From Octopus sinensis (taxonomy: Eukaryota): a stretch of 7,824 nt of DNA. Location of the stretch: NCBI RefSeq assembly GCF_006345805.1, contig NW_021828664.1, positions 1 through 7,824 of the forward strand. Reading direction: 5' to 3'. The notes beneath the pieces were generated by a model, which had not been told where the DNA came from, searched no databases, and was given only the letters and a program-made list of their open reading frames with translations. This document shows, piece by piece, positions 420 through 7,824 of the stretch (position 1 is the stretch's first letter; every line of letters begins with the position of its first letter). Made by a program: the position numbers and the translations under genes.

Positions 420-510
420 CTCCCTTCTTATTCTTGAAGAAGAGCACGTGCTCGAAATATTAGGCGGTCTTTCTCCTTCAGAAGGCAAAACTAAACACAC
501 CAACCTGATA
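420..510 (+). mobile_element. Diverged Penelope-like terminal fragment with hammerhead-like motif
   Basis: TTGAAGA-A-GAGC-acgt-GCTC-GAAA-TATT at 434-461, followed by ctttctccttc...aaactaaacacac, which resembles the downstream sequence of the minus-strand copy at 3118-3295. Confidence 0.5.
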
Positions 511-520
511 TTTTATTTGT

Positions 521-555
<35 letters not shown>

Positions 556-565
556 TTCATTTATT
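511..565. repeat. (TTTA)n microsatellite
   Basis: Directly visible tetranucleotide run. Confidence 0.95.
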
Positions 566-628
566 ACAATTTTCTCATATTCGACGTTGCTATGCGTTTG
601 TTTGTCTTCAAGTTCGTATGAATTAATT

Positions 629-756
629 TACGTGTGTGTGTGTGTGTGTGTATGTGTGTGTGTGTGTGAGCGTGTGTATGCGTACGAACGTGTGTCGATG
701 TATGCATACATATATTGCATGTAACACGCATATACATATACATACATACATACATA

Positions 757-799
<43 letters not shown>

Positions 800-856
800 A
801 TATATATATATATATATATACGCGTGCATGTATGTATATATACACGCGTGTGTGTA
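629..856. repeat. Compound (TG)n/(TA)n/(TACA)n microsatellite
   Basis: Almost continuous purine-pyrimidine alternation. Confidence 0.95.
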
Positions 857-1163
857 TTTGGTTTTAAGTGAACATTTTCAATTACTAAACAATCCCGAAG
901 TACGTGAAACAAAAGACACTTTTAGAACGATTGCGTTGCAGACACTGAAAAGCAGATCAATTGAAAATTATGTGCGATCATAAAAGCAATTAACATCGAA
1001 TTTAATTACACTCGACTTTTCTCTCTAACGACAAAATGGAATTTAAATGAATTTAAAAATCGATAAATCGATCAATGCAAATAATATTTGATTAAATTGC
1101 AATTTGAAATAAACTATTGTCAACGGAATATATTTTCAGAGATTGTTACGTTACGTTACGTTT

Positions 1164-1165
<2 letters not shown>

Positions 1166-1208
<43 letters not shown>

Positions 1209-1273
1209 TACTACTACTACTACCACTACTGCTGCTGCTGCTGCTACTATTACTGCTACTATTACTACTACTA
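1166..1273. repeat. (ACT)n/(GCT)n trinucleotide microsatellite
   Basis: Directly visible; preceded by (GTTAC)3 at 1145-1159. Confidence 0.95.
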
Positions 1274-1398
1274 TCAAATCGACTCACAAGGCTTTGGTCG
1301 GCCCGAGGCTATAGTAGAAGACAATTGCCCAAGGTGCCACGCAGTGGGACTGAACCCAGAACCATGTGGTTGGGGAATGTGGAAGTAAAGTTACTATC
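1271..1398 (-). mobile_element. tRNA-derived CORE-type SINE family A (octopus OR/OK-like), partial
   Basis: Minus strand shows B-box-like GGGTTCAGTCCC followed by CORE-like ACCTTGGGCAA; clear similarity to 1506-1567 and 5042-5206. Confidence 0.85.
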
Positions 1399-1440
1399 TA
1401 GAGTGTAGGCTTTGGACGTTTCCAGAATGGAGAATAGTGC

Positions 1441-1448
1441 TATATATA

Positions 1449-1497
<49 letters not shown>

Positions 1498-1498
1498 C
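1441..1498. repeat. (TA)n microsatellite
   Basis: Directly visible. Confidence 0.95.
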
Positions 1499-1505
1499 AT
1501 CTATA

Positions 1506-1567
1506 TGCCCAAGGTGCTATGCAGTGGGACTGAACCCGGAACTACATGGATGGGAAGCAAGCTGCTT
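1506..1567 (-). mobile_element. SINE family A fragment (tRNA head/B-box)
   Basis: tgcccaaggtgctatgcagtgggactgaacccggaac...gggaagcaagc closely repeats 1326-1376 and 5124-5180. Confidence 0.85.
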
Positions 1568-1574
1568 GTCAAAA

Positions 1575-1700
1575 TTAGTAGAATTGTCAGAACATTCGTT
1601 AGTATGGCTTGCGGCATGAGTTCAAATTCCACCGAAAGCAACATCGATTTTCTTTTCTGTCGTGGTCAATAAATAACGTACCGGTTCTGTTCGATTTTTC
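1575..1700 (+). mobile_element. Diverged SINE family B copy
   Basis: B-box-like GAGTTCAAATTCC at 1618-1630; aaattccaccga...aataaataacgtacc parallels aaattccgccga...aaaataaatacc of 7100-7313. Confidence 0.5.
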
Positions 1701-1824
1701 CCTTCACTCTAGTTTATAAACAGCAATACAAAGGTCCCGACCTATCACGTGGTGTTACACCGATTCGCGGCACGATGTGACTACTATGATGTGTATCAGA
1801 ATGTGACACGCACTTACGACTCAT

Positions 1825-1975
1825 GGATGCATCATGGCCAAAAGAATAAGCTATTTGCTTCACAATCACGACGTTTCGCGATCGGTGCTACAGCTTGGAA
1901 CATTGGACAAATATACGTTATTATTTCTTCGGTTCGATCCAAGCCTTGTAAGTAAATATGGATCGATGATAACTA
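1825..1975 (+). mobile_element. Old SINE family A copy, forward orientation
   Basis: Colinear blocks ttgcttcacaatcac, acagcttggaacattggacaa and ttcggttcgatccaagccttgtaagtaaatatgg match the reverse complement of the younger minus-strand copies. Confidence 0.65.
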
Positions 1976-2339
1976 TACAGTAACTGGCGGAATCGACTGT
2001 ATCGCTAAGTTACATATACACCATTGTTTCGTAACATATCACGCTGATTTTTGTCAGCAGATTACAAAATTACCTTACGTACCTTCAGAATATTCAGTGA
2101 CATACACGCTAATTCAATGAATATACACTAATATCTCGCCATATCGTAGTTCACCTATCACACACTCGGCACATCGCAGATTTTTCTGGTTAATATATGT
2201 AAACTTACATCGCGGACTCCTCAGTATACCGCGGGGTTCTTCGACCGATAGGTACTTATAATTTTTAGATTTTAATTATATCTGTGGGAGGTTTTGGAAC
2301 GTAACACCTGTGATAGTCGAGGGATTACTGCATCATCAG

Positions 2340-2377
2340 TCGAACAACTCAATGCTCATCGTCGAAAGTGACGGAGC
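2340..2377. repeat. Old dispersed repeat, copy 2 (unclassified)
   Basis: 29/38 identity to 272-309; a third weaker remnant at about 2455-2490 (ctcaccgtgacaaccgacggaga). Confidence 0.55.
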
Positions 2378-2684
2378 TTTTCTTATTCATTTTATTGTAT
2401 CGCTATTATTTTATGGGCTTTACTTAAATTTCACAAATAGCTCAGAGTTTGGGACCAATGAATTCTCACCGTGACAACCGACGGAGAACCCACATTTTTT
2501 TTAACTGTGTAGGATGATCTTAAGAAAGTGTTGTCTGTATGTCTCCGTGCGGCCATATTTCTTTTGATTATCCCTGTTTGATTAATTAAATTAGAGGAGC
2601 GATTGATATAAAATTATCGATCTGACACTCGAGGCAATACTCATAACGCCATTTGCAGAACTCCTTGTCACACGATAAGCCTCT

Positions 2685-3000
2685 CAGCATACATCATCAG
2701 CCTCTGCGCCACCACGACCATTATCACAGACATCAACATCACCACCATCAACATCAGCATCATCGACAACATCACTACCAGCAGTTTCGCAAACACCACC
2801 ACCACCACCACCTCGACAGCCACCTCTGTCACCATCATCATCACCATCACTATCGCATATGCTAACACGTTGATTAACACCCGCTGCGCCGCCGCTGCCG
2901 CCATCCCAAGCACTATCCCCCAAACACGATCATCTTCACTTCTTTCATCACAATTGCCACTGCCAAAGCTACCACCGACACCATCAGCTCCACCGCCAGA
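2685..3000. repeat. Degenerate (CAC/CAT/CAA/GCC)n triplet low-complexity tract
   Basis: Period-3 imperfect repeat giving His-, Thr/Ile- or Pro/Ser-rich translations depending on frame. Confidence 0.85.
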
Positions 3001-3007
3001 TTCGAAC

Positions 3008-3117
3008 ATGCACGCACACATGCATGCACATACACACATGCATGCACATACACACACACACACACACTCACAAAGACACACACATACATACAGACACAAG
3101 CACACACATATATATAG
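3008..3117. repeat. (CA)n-rich compound microsatellite ending in (TA)n
   Basis: Directly visible. Confidence 0.95.
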
Positions 3118-3295
3118 TTGAAATTTACAGAAAAACAAAAGACGAAGACAGGTCTATAAATAACAAGCAAGTGTGTTAGTTTGAATCTCGGGAAGGTGAG
3201 AAAGTCCTTTACATTTTGAGCCTACGCTCTTCAGCAGAAAGAATCGACGAAATAAAAGAGAGAGAAAAAACACTTTTGGCTATAGCGGTCAATTA
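3118..3295 (-). mobile_element. Penelope-like terminal fragment (second subfamily) with decayed hammerhead-like motif
   Basis: Minus strand 3242-3205: tcttt-CTGCTGA-A-GAGC-gtag-GCTC-AAAA-TG-TA-aagga. It has a pyrimidine-rich leader and a T-rich tail running into (TA)n, the same layout as 5568-5742. Confidence 0.6.
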
Positions 3296-3338
3296 TATAG
3301 ATATATGTGTGTGTGTGTGTGTGCCTGTTGGTGTGGGA

Positions 3339-3552
3339 GTCTTTGTGACTGTGTTTGTCCACCACCACAGCTTGCCGACCGGTGTTGGTGTGTTTACGCC
3401 CCCGTAACTTAAGGGTTCGGCAAAGAGACCGAGAGAATACGTACTCAGCTTAAAACATACGTCCTGGGTTTGATTAAAACCCTTCAAGTTGCTCCAGCCT
3501 GACCGCAGTCACTTGACCGAAACTAGTGAAAGAATAAAAGAATACAAGAATA
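3339..3552 (+). mobile_element. 3' half of a SINE (probably family A) with short repeat tail
   Basis: Follows a (TG)n tract; body gtgtttgtcc...gtgtttacg.ccccgtaactta..ggttcggcaaa recognised from memory as octopus SINE 3' region; ends in aaagaat/aaaagaat/acaagaat tail. Confidence 0.7.
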
Positions 3553-3801
3553 TACATACATACGTACATACACACACACACACACATACATATGTAACAG
3601 TATAATTATAAACGGCAAATTTTAGCCAGTTGTCTGCAGATATGTATGTATATTGTGCGTATATCTATATCTATATATATATATGTGTGTTATATATATA
3701 TATTATATGTATATATACACATAGATATAATATATATTCATATACACTATATATACATATATATATTATACACATATACACATATATATTTCATATGTAT
3801 A

Positions 3802-3842
<41 letters not shown>

Positions 3843-3878
3843 CACACACACACCCACACACACACACAACACACACAC

Positions 3879-3914
<36 letters not shown>

Positions 3915-4012
3915 ATGTATGTAGTATATATATATGTATGTATGTATGTATATGTATATGTCTGTCTGTCTGTACGTATATACATATATATATAAATATA
4001 TATATTTAAATA
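3552..4012. repeat. Long compound (TA)n/(CA)n/(TATG)n microsatellite field
   Basis: Directly visible, with a short unique interruption at about 3595-3640. Confidence 0.95.
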
Positions 4013-4231
4013 TATGGAATAAATTTCTGAATAGAAGTATGAACGAAAGCACCGTTTCTTGCCTCGTTAAAACCATTTATCTGCTGCTAAATGAAAAGGA
4101 AGTGCTCTGTAGAAGTCTTTGGAATATTTTCCACCGAATTCTTTATTTTCTGTTGCAGATACTTAGGAATATCCGGGTTCCGTTCTCTATAGGAATCGTC
4201 CTTTCTTTCCCTTGCCTTTTCTCTATTGACC

Positions 4232-4309
4232 ATGGCATTTACCGATAATAATGCTATGATCGTAGTATGGTTATTATCTATCGTGGTTGTGATTACAAGA
4301 ATTGGTTAA
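4232..4309 (+). CDS. Candidate first coding exon or small ORF: MAFTDNNAMIVVWLLSIVVVITRIG (signal-peptide/TM-like)
   Basis: Strong acceptor ttctttattttctgttgcAG ending 4158 with no AG in 4116-4156; Kozak context GACCATGG at ATG 4232; hydrophobic core; possible phase-1 donor G/GTTAAT at 4304/4305 or stop TAA 4307-4309. Confidence 0.3.
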   Translation: MAFTDNNAMIVVWLLSIVVVITRIG

Positions 4310-4469
4310 TGGAATTTGATGTGAAACTCGGAGTAAATGTTTATGGAGGATTTCTTACTTGCTTAAAGTGCTATATTACGCTATTTGGTTATCGAGTACT
4401 ATATTCGCCACTTTCTTTTACACGTACATGCACACATGTGTGCTAACGATTGTTAACACCCCTTGTCCA

Positions 4470-4550
4470 CACACATACATATGCACACACACACTATATA
4501 TATATATATATAGATAGATACACACACACACACAACACACACATATATAT
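4470..4550. repeat. (CA)n/(TA)n microsatellite
   Basis: Directly visible. Confidence 0.9.
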
Positions 4551-4855
4551 AAAGTAACTCCAAACAAGAAAGCACAAAAAAAACACAACAACGCGAGGAC
4601 GTGAAACAAATATAGTATTATTGGACGCTCAGGAAAGAAGGAAAGAAGAGGGGTTTAACGTTTCGAGCGGAGTTCTTCGTCGGAAACGTAGGAGAAGGAA
4701 AGATCCAGAGAAGGGAAGACACAGGAAAAAAAAATCGCCAACGGTACACACGAGGTCACATTTCTGTAAAAGCAACTATTTAAGGGCTTTTAATGTTTTC
4801 ATACTTGCTGTCCTTTCAAATTCTTCTTATTCCCTCCCAACACACACGCACATAT
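4551..4855 (-). mobile_element. ~300-bp Penelope-like terminal element (longest copy in window)
   Basis: 4551-4734 is the inverted copy of 5568-5742 and 4763-4855 the inverted copy of 6398-6486; contains hammerhead-like motif at 4653-4687; both ends embedded in microsatellite. Confidence 0.7.
4653..4687 (-). ncRNA. Minimal type I hammerhead-like motif (stem II mismatch)
   Basis: GUUU-CCGACGA-A-GAAC-ucc-GCUC-GAAA-CG-UU-AAAC; one substitution (4673) breaks a stem II pair relative to 5614-5648. Confidence 0.45.
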
Positions 4856-4974
4856 ATGTGTATATATATCTATACATACATACATACATACATACATGCA
4901 TATATACATGTATATATATATATTATATAGATATATATATATACATGCATATATATAGTATATATATATATCCA

Positions 4975-5022
<48 letters not shown>

Positions 5023-5043
5023 TATATGTATATATATATATAT
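4856..5043. repeat. (TA)n/(TACA)n microsatellite
   Basis: Directly visible. Confidence 0.95.
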
Positions 5044-5206
5044 GACGGGTTCCTTTCAATTCCTCTTTGCCAATCCACTCACATGGATTTGGTCAACAAC
5101 CCGAGGTTTTAGTATAAGACACTTGCCCAAGGTGCCACGCGGTGGGACTGAATTCGGAGGCATGTGGTTGGGAAGCAAGCTTCTTACCACATGGCCACGC
5201 CTGCGC
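5042..5206 (-). mobile_element. SINE family A, intact 5' half (tRNA head plus CORE-like region)
   Basis: Minus strand begins gcgcaggcgTGGCCATGTGGtaag (A-box-like), then GAATTCAGTCCC (degenerate B-box) and ACCTTGGGCAAGT; runs into the TA tract. Confidence 0.85.
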
Positions 5207-5207
5207 G

Positions 5208-5240
<33 letters not shown>

Positions 5241-5404
5241 TTATGAAATGAAAATAAGCAACAGGATATCAAGTAGTGATGCAGTACGACCGTTTCAAGC
5301 GGCTCCATTGAACTGAAAAATGCAATTATTATATCAGCTCATATGCAATACTATCTTCAGCTGCACAAATAAATACATTGAATTTTAACCAGTGGGACAC
5401 ATTG

Positions 5405-5478
5405 ATATATATATATATATATAATACACAACATACCTACATACATACATATATACATACATGCATATATACATGTAT

Positions 5479-5526
<48 letters not shown>

Positions 5527-5558
5527 CATATATACATATATATATATATACACACATA
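5405..5558. repeat. (TA)n/(TACA)n microsatellite
   Basis: Directly visible. Confidence 0.95.
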
Positions 5559-5567
5559 TTTTTCCTC

Positions 5568-5742
5568 TTTTTTTTCCCCTGTCTTCCCTTCTCTGGATCT
5601 TTCCTTCTCCTTTGTTTCCGACGAAGAGCTCCGCTCGAAACGTTAAACCCTCCTTTTTTCCTTAGCGTCCAATAATACTATATTTGTTCCACGTCCTCGC
5701 GTTGTTGTGTTTTTTTTGTGTTTTCTTGTTTAGATTAACTTT
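5568..5742 (+). mobile_element. Penelope-like terminal fragment, inverted copy of 4551-4734
   Basis: Long near-identical reverse-complement match with a few substitutions and a short indel; 3' end aacttt abuts (TA)n exactly as in the other copy. Confidence 0.75.
5614..5648 (+). ncRNA. Minimal type I hammerhead-like ribozyme motif (best preserved copy)
   Basis: Stem I GUUU(5614-17)/AAAC(5645-48); core CCGACGA 5618-24 (U4C variant of CUGANGA); extra A 5625; stem II GAGC/GCUC; GAAA 5637-40; palindromic AACGUU in place of helix III. Confidence 0.55.
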
Positions 5743-5836
5743 ATATATATATATATATACACACAGAGAAACACACATATATATATAGTTATGCAAATAT
5801 GTGCTGAGTTTTTGTCTTTCTCTGTAGGTGTACATA

Positions 5837-6070
5837 CGGTGTTGGCCAAAAGTCTGTCGACAGTAAATCAAAATTCCATAAGTACTATCTGTAATTCTGT
5901 ATTGACTCGAATGGAGAAATGGCGTCGCTCAAGAAGAACTTCAGTTCAAACAATTTTCCTGACGTTTCGTATTTAGATGCTTTTGTTAAATTCATTCAGT
6001 TGTTGAACACAAATAAATCTTGGAAGTAAATGGTTTTGATTTACCGTCAGCTGACTTTTCGCCAACGCTG
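5837..6070. mobile_element. Tc1/mariner-type MITE (234 bp)
   Basis: 37-bp terminal inverted repeats (5837-5873 / 6034-6070, 30/37 match), consensus CAGTGTTGGCCAAAAG similar to Tc1 ends; TA on both sides (5835-36, 6071-72); no transposase ORF. Confidence 0.85.
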
Positions 6071-6223
6071 TATACAGCTAAACTTTTGTTAGAGTTTTCA
6101 ATATTTGATATTTATTGCAGAAATACAAATTGATATTCATGAATGTATGAACAAATAAACATGCATACAATCCTAAAACACAAATGTACACAAGCATACA
6201 TTCACGCATACATGCATGAATGA

Positions 6224-6398: not shown

Positions 6399-6486
6399 TA
6401 TGTGCGTGTGTGGGGAGGGAAAAGAAGAATTGAAAGAACAGCAAGTATGAAAACATTAAAAGCCCTTAAATAGCTGCTTTTACAGA
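6398..6486 (+). mobile_element. Inverted copy of 4763-4855 (upstream part of the Penelope-like element)
   Basis: atatgtgcgtgtgtg..gggaggga...cagcaagtatgaaaacattaaaagcccttaaatag.tgcttttacaga shared with only two substitutions and three small indels. Confidence 0.75.
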
Positions 6487-6517
6487 GATATTTGTTGGTT
6501 TCACTGAAATTAGGTCA

Positions 6518-7099: not shown

Positions 7100-7313
7100 A
7101 TAATTGGCAGAATCGTTACCAAGTTAGGCAAATCCCTTAATGGTGTTTCGTCTGTCTTCACGTTCTCGGCTAAAATTCCGCCGAGGTCGGCTTTGCCCTC
7201 CATCTTTTCGGATTCCAGAAAATAAATACCTTTTGAACATCGGGGACGAAGGAATCGACTTACTAATCTATCTAGAAATTGCTGGCCTTGTGCCAAAATT
7301 TGAAATCAATATT
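7100..7313 (+). mobile_element. SINE family B, near full length but diverged
   Basis: A-box-like TGGCAGAATCG 7105-7115, decayed B-box region (ggctaaaattccgccgaggtcggctttgcc), 3' part ggccttgtgccaaaatttgaaa; second copy at 1575-1700. Confidence 0.7.
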
Positions 7314-7632: not shown

Positions 7633-7824
7633 AAGGCGGCACACTAGTAAGGAGGCACAAAGCAGCTTAGCCGGCAGAAGGCGGCACACTAGTAAGGAGG
7701 CACAAAGCAGCTTAGCTGGCAGACGGCGGCACACTAGTAAGGAGGCACAAAGCAGCTTAGCCGGCAGAAGGCGGCACACTAGTAAGGAGGCACAAAGCAG
7801 CTTAGCCGGCAGAAGGCGGCACAC
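7633..7824. repeat. 45-bp GC-rich minisatellite, at least 4.3 copies, cut by window end
   Basis: Unit aaggcggcacactagtaaggaggcacaaagcagcttagccggcag starts at 7633, 7678, 7723, 7768, 7813; only two substitutions (7717, 7724). Confidence 0.98.

Follow-up and report, generated by a model that had tools for sequence, protein, structure and literature searches.

Hammerhead motifs with altered cores in two lineages of Penelope-like elements of Octopus sinensis

In the genome of Octopus sinensis, the small repeat-rich contig NW_021828664.1 (assembly GCF_006345805.1) carries four copies of one short motif resembling a minimal hammerhead ribozyme, and the question arises as to what these copies are and whether such motifs still cut RNA. 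Our analysis covered the whole contig, 7,824 nucleotides (nt) of a 2.72-Gb genome, which is referred to below as the window. Three of the motifs are the 3' ends of two lineages of Penelope-like elements (PLEs) that encode a reverse transcriptase (RT) and a GIY-YIG endonuclease. Comparison of many genomic copies indicates that lineage A is fixed for the core change U4C and lineage B for A6U, with the rest of the core kept. Positions follow the hammerhead numbering, in which G8 and G12 are residues with functional roles.

Four motifs and their parent elements

The core words of the four motifs are TTGAAGA (434, + strand), CTGCTGA (3237, −), CCGACGA (4683, −) and CCGACGA (5618, +). All are followed by an A and then by a GAGC/GCTC stem (stem II), which reads GAAC after the 4683 core, closed by the loops ACGT, GTAG, TCC and TCC, respectively, and leading into GAAA in three copies and AAAA at 3237. 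The four places, and the shared architecture of core, extra A, stem, loop and GAAA, are thus all present as the initial annotation of this contig described them. Its description of the next segment as mostly palindromic holds for three of the four copies, where the segment 3' of GAAA is a true palindrome, and fails for the copy starting at 3205, where it is broken. Helix I has 4, 4 and 5 bp in three copies, and that of the 434 copy opens with a mismatch. A descriptor of the motif matched the window exactly four times, against a mean of 0.46 in 300 local dinucleotide shuffles, only one of which gave at least four; these figures are indicative only, since the descriptor was drawn up post hoc from the four known copies. 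Moreover, the 4653 and 5614 copies belong to one family, with 89.5% identity over 191 nt, and are therefore not independent.

Established searches did not detect the motifs. The strict CTGANGA..GAAA pattern has no match anywhere in the window, and the Rfam hammerhead models matched neither the window nor the single motifs at E values up to 10. A relative with a canonical core also lacks an Rfam hammerhead match, so the Rfam test does not discriminate, and the only Rfam matches within the window were simple-repeat microRNA look-alikes. The CCGACGA word at 300–312 was considered as a fifth motif and rejected, as it lacks both stem II and GAAA. Positions 272–328, 2340–2396 and 2450–2506 hold three diverged 57-nt copies of another repeat, the first of which contains CCGACGA and no hammerhead stem.

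The link to PLE frames, which the initial annotation had proposed, was confirmed by full-length elements carrying the motif. Long copies of lineage B extend upstream into degraded RT and GIY-YIG frames, and the endonuclease is followed downstream by the motif in 20 of 30 loci, 19 of these 20 having U6; for lineage A the corresponding numbers are 13 of 20 stretches, all 13 with C4. In L220 (motifs at 1115 and 5388) and L223, two motifs 4,273 nt apart lie in direct repeats flanking a long frame; L247 (770 and 7048) and L248 have a 1,008-codon frame and a motif in both repeats; and a sister frame lies 2.7 kb upstream of L186, a lineage A copy. The direct repeats of the full-length elements are 92% and 98.7% alike. 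Pfam assigns RVT_1 to L220 (E 2.7e-8), whereas GIY-YIG is below the curated cut-off for L247 and without a match for L220; both domains nevertheless align by tblastn to the Pfam-positive L098 protein. The ADKG, YIDD, IYC and YIGQ motifs can be read directly in the element proteins, which places them among the endonuclease-bearing (EN+) Penelope-like elements. A search of the PDB gave no matches. Both lineages carry a cysteine linker, C-x4-C-x2-C, before the endonuclease, a feature described for the Neptune and Nematis clades (PMC8557442). Together with targeting of (TA)n microsatellites, this linker agrees with Neptune, an assignment by traits, and the linker is common to Nematis.

The 30 best GIY-YIG loci were also considered as parents and set aside, since they belong mostly to another PLE family with a different hammerhead. 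In a young PLE family (L098:1721–4063, L099, L077–L091), the RT and GIY-YIG frame is intact over 781 codons; the 3' region holds CCAAT- and CRE-like repeats, and about 80 nt ahead of the terminal (TA)n stands a hammerhead-like motif whose core is of the published U3-A8 type. Another dispersed repeat, seen in three copies (L131, minus strand, near 487 from the end; L002; L176:2392), combines a canonical core with the extra A, a 6-bp stem II and a 4-bp helix I. According to PMC13282606, PLEs are abundant, and some of them recent, in Octopus vulgaris.

Both lineages are present in thousands of copies; the three tails in the window measure about 180–210 nt and end in (TA)n. Lineage A gave 1,649 candidates, of which the best 40 scored, overlaps aside, are 89–97% (mostly 94–97%) identical, about 200 nt long and end in (TA)n. 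A 34-nt lineage A pattern with positions 4, 6 and 7 left free has 4,625 exact matches in the genome and none in the control; the first 100, counted by hand, comprise 82 with C4 and 18 with U4. Lineage B gave 3,125 candidates, the best 39 scored, besides the window copy, being 84–89% identical. With N7 free, its pattern has 12,543 exact matches with U6 versus 412 with another base (C 68, A 23 and G 9 among the first 100), the non-U6 pattern having the additional restriction that H17 was fixed as A or T. At N7, the first 100 of the U6 matches have T 51, A 22, C 15 and G 12. C4 and U6 cores dominate these counts, which bears out the expectation that strict CUGANGA searches overlook most copies. 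In 60 evenly spaced 10-kb stretches, nine copies span the motif and two are shorter, which extrapolates to about 40,000 genome-wide, and (TA)4 follows 196 of 250 copies, versus 9% of random places.

Solo copies prefer to start about 60–90 nt before C3 (about 30 of 72 for lineage A and 28 of 72 for lineage B), and the window copies start at 4763 (−) and 3293 (−). In lineage B the preferred start is a CCATG-like word, which we take to resemble a YY1 site. This boundary may mark a transcription start inside the pseudo-long terminal repeat (pseudo-LTR), and this would explain the many solo copies of 200 nt. The U6-bearing segment L220:1112–1192 is matched without difference by a contig of run X7, labelled as a second organism, so that the U6 lineage occurs under more than one sample label. 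Position 6 showed no variation in the RNA-contig table, which omits variant letters near contig ends and hence provides no evidence on this point.

Core changes and constraint in the two lineages

The family alignment comprises 254 copies, after 32 of 286 matches had been dropped as partial or duplicate and the 434 copy had been added by hand. When 251 copies were clustered by their flanks alone, 14 groups of at least three copies held 169 of them and 82 fell outside groups. Across these 14 subfamilies, three changes suffice for the 11 core columns, all of them at position 4 or 6; none is needed for the extra A, stem II or the palindrome, and N7 and H17 take five each. The 101 flank columns require 144 changes, a step count that runs high because the flanks are of low complexity and prone to alignment artefacts. 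At H17, none of the 14 subfamilies has G as its majority base, A, U and C being the bases used; all 14 also keep the palindrome A15.1-N-N-U16.1, and the extra A is present in 251 of the 254 copies. N7, H17 and loop II thus vary as a hammerhead permits.

A second measure came from the coding frames. With expectations taken from the four-fold synonymous sites of the same elements, the 21 core, stem II and palindrome positions show no changes, against 7.8 expected for lineage B (P 0.0004) and 5.9 for lineage A (P 0.003). These four-fold counts are lower bounds from 2–13 copies per group, and one copy has a private stem II change. Synonymous sites differ between subfamilies by up to 31% in lineage B and 25% in lineage A.

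The canonical core, C3 U4 G5 A6 N7 G8 A9 with G12 A13 A14, fits the basal subfamilies and none of the four window copies. In the rooted tree, canonical cores are basal in lineage A and the C4 cores form one clade, a few short copies being grouped by artefact. In lineage B, the base of which is poorly resolved, N7 runs through all four bases under constant U6. Copy-level mismatch is highest at CpG sites; CpG decay as the sole source of the CTGACGA copies of lineage A was rejected for most of them, given their common diagnostic flank letters and basal place. A shifted core register in lineage B was likewise discarded, as it disrupts stem II and does not persist through changes at N7, and a hairpin between the U-tract and GAAA was rejected as the selected fold, as it shows no covariation.

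Over 34 hand-picked rows, stem II is invariant and 97% paired, and helix I is 87.5% paired, with one pair in which both bases have changed; lineage A has G-C, and lineage B C-G, as the outer pair of helix I. The proposal of selection on RNA structure is thus upheld as regards constraint on the core above both the flank and the synonymous level, but not as regards the stem, which is invariant rather than covarying. This constraint acts on the replicating lineages and is not shown for the four window copies. A second conserved block lies 15–25 nt after H17 (L220:1160–1175 and equivalents) and contains a GAGC, a possible competitor for stem II's 3' strand; copies L134 and L232 carry deletions that join the two GAGC words or lie nearby.

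Much of this architecture is already in print. According to Cervera and de la Pena 2014 (PMC4209133), the consistent traits of metazoan PLE minimal hammerheads are a nucleotide lying between residues 9 and 10.1, a G10.1-C11.1 pair and a palindrome; with the extra nucleotide and palindrome in a published consensus, the architecture is a known one. The octopus motifs agree with it as minimal type I hammerheads and also share the U-rich 5' side, a helix I of 2–5 bp, a 4-nt palindrome for helix III, the location in pseudo-LTRs and the prevalence of solo copies. The extra A and the near absence of helix III, put forward initially as specific to this lineage, are on the contrary general traits in that source. 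That an extra A is tolerated in the hammerhead of the viroid CChMVd (chrysanthemum chlorotic mottle viroid) is likewise in print, with a moderate loss of rate (PMC1636495). The nearest listed relative is the Neptune motif of Acropora digitifera, with a CUGACGA core, the extra A, a 4-bp stem II ending in GCUC and the same palindrome. All the rows of the PMC4209133 alignment have U4 and A6, with core variants at position 3, with or without A8; the autonomous octopus lineages, unlike these rows, are fixed for U4C and A6U.

Three other systems invite comparison. The Poseidon element PAc of the green anole (Frangieh 2024, PMC11167929) also has a pseudo-LTR hammerhead, AT-rich targets and uncut RNA as its main template. 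It differs in belonging to the Penelope/Poseidon clade and in an open reading frame (ORF) that begins inside the hammerhead, whereas the octopus elements have the cysteine linker and a long frame starting well downstream of the motif, and their cleavage is predicted. The viroid changes U4C and extra A10, and A6C in phage Bcep176 (PMC3088659, PMC1636495, PMC7151607), indicate that single changes lower cutting and need not abolish it; those variants are single replicons with full helices, the octopus variants thousands of copies. Animal non-LTR retrozymes (bioRxiv 10.64898/2026.07.22.740005; PMC7229834) similarly carry short hammerhead derivatives related to PLE pseudo-LTRs. They are defined by tandem units, whereas the octopus copies are mostly dispersed solos: the window holds no tandem array of motif units, and the genome matches include a few adjacent pairs.

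The literature searched contained no report of octopus PLE hammerheads, nor of U4C or A6U as the fixed state of a PLE lineage, although Lunse 2017 and Arkhipova 2017 may contain such variants. The feature is therefore mostly known, and the new part is the two lineage-wide core changes under continued constraint. In vitro, PLE hammerheads cut weakly; the sole reconstituted system can do without them for insertion, and some clades lack them. The presence of canonical, C4 and U6 cores in closely related long-frame elements provides a natural experiment separating catalysis from a binding role. If U6 cores cut, search patterns will need widening and present genomic hammerhead counts are too low. 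The window's own copies matter little in this respect.

Catalysis and the alternatives

Sequence comparison favours, with modest confidence, the reading that the three motifs are pseudo-LTR hammerheads, the fourth being a likely older relative, and that their parents are slow ribozymes in need of a second copy or a protein. The window motifs would have been left as short 3' fragments of PLE lineages within (TA)n tracts. Transcription from the upstream pseudo-LTR would run through the motif, so that a parent transcript would hold one motif near each end, and the two would form helix III by pairing through the 4-nt palindrome. Cleavage after H17 may be weak or late, in which case most templates would be copied uncut and insertions would retain the motif entire. 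Within the window, the lineage A pair lies on opposite strands, and no single transcript can contain both copies in the sense orientation. For a motif by itself, folding predicts pairing between core and palindrome, which is an inactive shape. In print, minimal hammerheads of PLEs do not work as monomers and are weak cutters as dimers (PMC4209133), the anole hammerhead cuts only in the presence of its protein (PMC11167929), a viroid with U4C stays infectious and A6C retains low activity (PMC3088659), and the strong loss in A6C with Mg2+ is rescued by Mn2+ (PMC7151607).

A number of observations weigh against catalysis. None of 232 matches to a downstream profile begins at H17+1, most of these loci having been picked by the motif and 10 coming from 800 kb of unbiased stretches. 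Helix I of young lineage A has U facing U, with a pair probability of at most 0.05, and one lineage B subfamily has a helix I mismatch; stem II shows no compensatory change, and the lone covariation in helix I is a single event. G17 occurs in three of the 254 copies, all of them old single copies. Other pseudo-LTR blocks are also well conserved, so that conservation alone does not show catalysis. As to rates, A6C cut about 100,000-fold slower at 0.3 mM Mg2+ in one ribozyme (PMC7151607), and no rate for A6U was found in the literature searched. In the anole system (PMC11167929), mutation of the hammerhead leaves insertion in vitro normal, and reads ending at the cut site are absent.

One alternative is a hammerhead descendant that no longer cuts and is kept because the element's protein or a host factor recognises its fold or sequence, or as promoter DNA of the pseudo-LTR, which we regard as a serious, if rather doubtful, competitor. 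It draws on the tolerance, in each of the two sister lineages, of a change that is damaging in vitro, on the normal insertion of the anole mutants, on the retention of the uncut motif in inserted copies, on the eroding helix I of young lineage A, and on the second conserved block downstream. Against it, freedom to vary is seen at exactly N7, H17 and loop II, and G is avoided at H17 throughout the 14 subfamilies, as catalysis predicts, an avoidance that is weak alone, with only five changes at H17. Plain decay, by which loss of the ribozyme came with U4C and A6U and too little time has passed for further change, agrees with the behaviour of single window copies and with the excess of mismatch at CpG sites. 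It is very improbable, being largely refuted by the 21 motif positions that stayed unchanged over those synonymous distances and by the passage of N7 through all four bases under constant U6. Still more improbable is a locus-level RNA element selected by the host, or a stand-alone ribozyme family apart from any coding element. Three clear copies in 7.8 kb do exceed the genome average of nine in 600 kb, but copies are dispersed in their thousands and linked directly to PLE frames, three of the window copies carry private lesions, the closest pair lies on opposite strands outside any tandem array, and the window itself is a small repeat-rich contig.

With slow pseudo-LTR hammerheads preferred, a further suggestion can tentatively be made, namely that the two sister lineages have long run on cores that cripple free ribozymes (A6U and U4C) with undiminished selection on the rest of the core, which might point to a U6 hammerhead that is rescued by protein or deliberately slowed.

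Copies and other repeats of the window

The elements assigned within the window are the following.

5559..5740, + strand: PLE lineage A 3' end (part of the pseudo-LTR), truncated at its 5' side and lying between (TA)n tracts, with genome matches
5614..5648, + strand: minimal hammerhead motif with a U4C core, the sole window copy fitting its lineage at every motif position
Parts of the 5614 motif, + strand: helix I 5614–5617/5645–5648; core 5618–5624; extra A 5625; stem II 5626–5629/5633–5636; GAAA 5637–5640; predicted cut after U17, 5644
4553..4763, − strand: solo 3' end of PLE lineage A, 95% identical over 221 nt to genome locus L160
4653..4687, − strand: minimal hammerhead motif with a U4C core and a private stem II mismatch, with predicted loss of stem II
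3115..3293, − strand: solo 3' end belonging to an old PLE lineage B subfamily, with genome matches and 80% identity over 197 nt to the ORF-linked L103
3205..3241, − strand: lineage B minimal hammerhead motif with C6, G12A and a broken palindrome by family alignment, the lineage state being U6
426..469, + strand: lone hammerhead-like copy with U3 facing G8, A6 and a weak helix I, family not assigned

No coding frame within the window belongs to these PLEs. The copies are to be read as passengers, ordinary transposon fragments, three of which bear lesions expected to abolish or weaken cutting. Since lineage B has U6 with an intact GAAA and palindrome as its family state, the C6, G12A and broken palindrome of the 3205 copy are later lesions, and its ribozyme is likely dead. 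C6, G12A and the stem II mismatch (GAAC) are assigned by alignment to decay of single window copies after insertion, the 4653 copy having a predicted stem II pair probability of 0.0. C6 as a subfamily state was rejected, as C6 copies are scattered over the tree at mutation level. The variation at U4 and A6 that had been noted initially is accordingly real for U4C and A6U, each fixed by lineage, while the C6 actually seen in the window is a private lesion in a lineage whose state is U.

A DNA search of the genome brought up no relative of the 434 copy, whose exact 22-mer is unique there. The copy scores 19.7 bits against the family profile over the motif, the downstream flank alone not being significant, and has a branch length of 1.33 in the tree. 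It is probably, judging from this profile, an old decayed member of the same PLE group. Treating it as a family of its own was rejected: a relaxed pattern gave 52 matches, the ones read being for the most part lineage B copies or old relatives whose loops differ.

The lineage A copy at 4553–4763 has the preferred 5' start, about 80 nt ahead of C3. With that at 5559–5740 it forms a 190-bp inverted pair about 800 nt apart, and a transcript spanning both would form double-stranded RNA. Inverted duplication is an unlikely source of this 4653/5614 pair, since an 8-nt indel between them is seen among subfamily variants and a neighbouring inverted match is in the wrong order. Positions 4760–4830 and 6425–6489 form an inverted pair of a low-copy repeat adjoining (TA)n tracts.

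Other repeats account for further parts of the window. Inverted ends of 40 bp (5834–5873 and 6034–6073; 82.5%) surround about 240 nt, in the manner of a small non-autonomous DNA transposon. Very abundant short repeats, presumably short interspersed elements (SINEs), have left fragments at 1277–1374, 1506–1567, 5072–5205, 3340–3545 and 7130–7310, each matched by about half of 60 random stretches of the genome. Finally, a 45-bp tandem unit is present in 4.3 copies, 97% alike, at 7633–7824, where it runs off the end of the contig.

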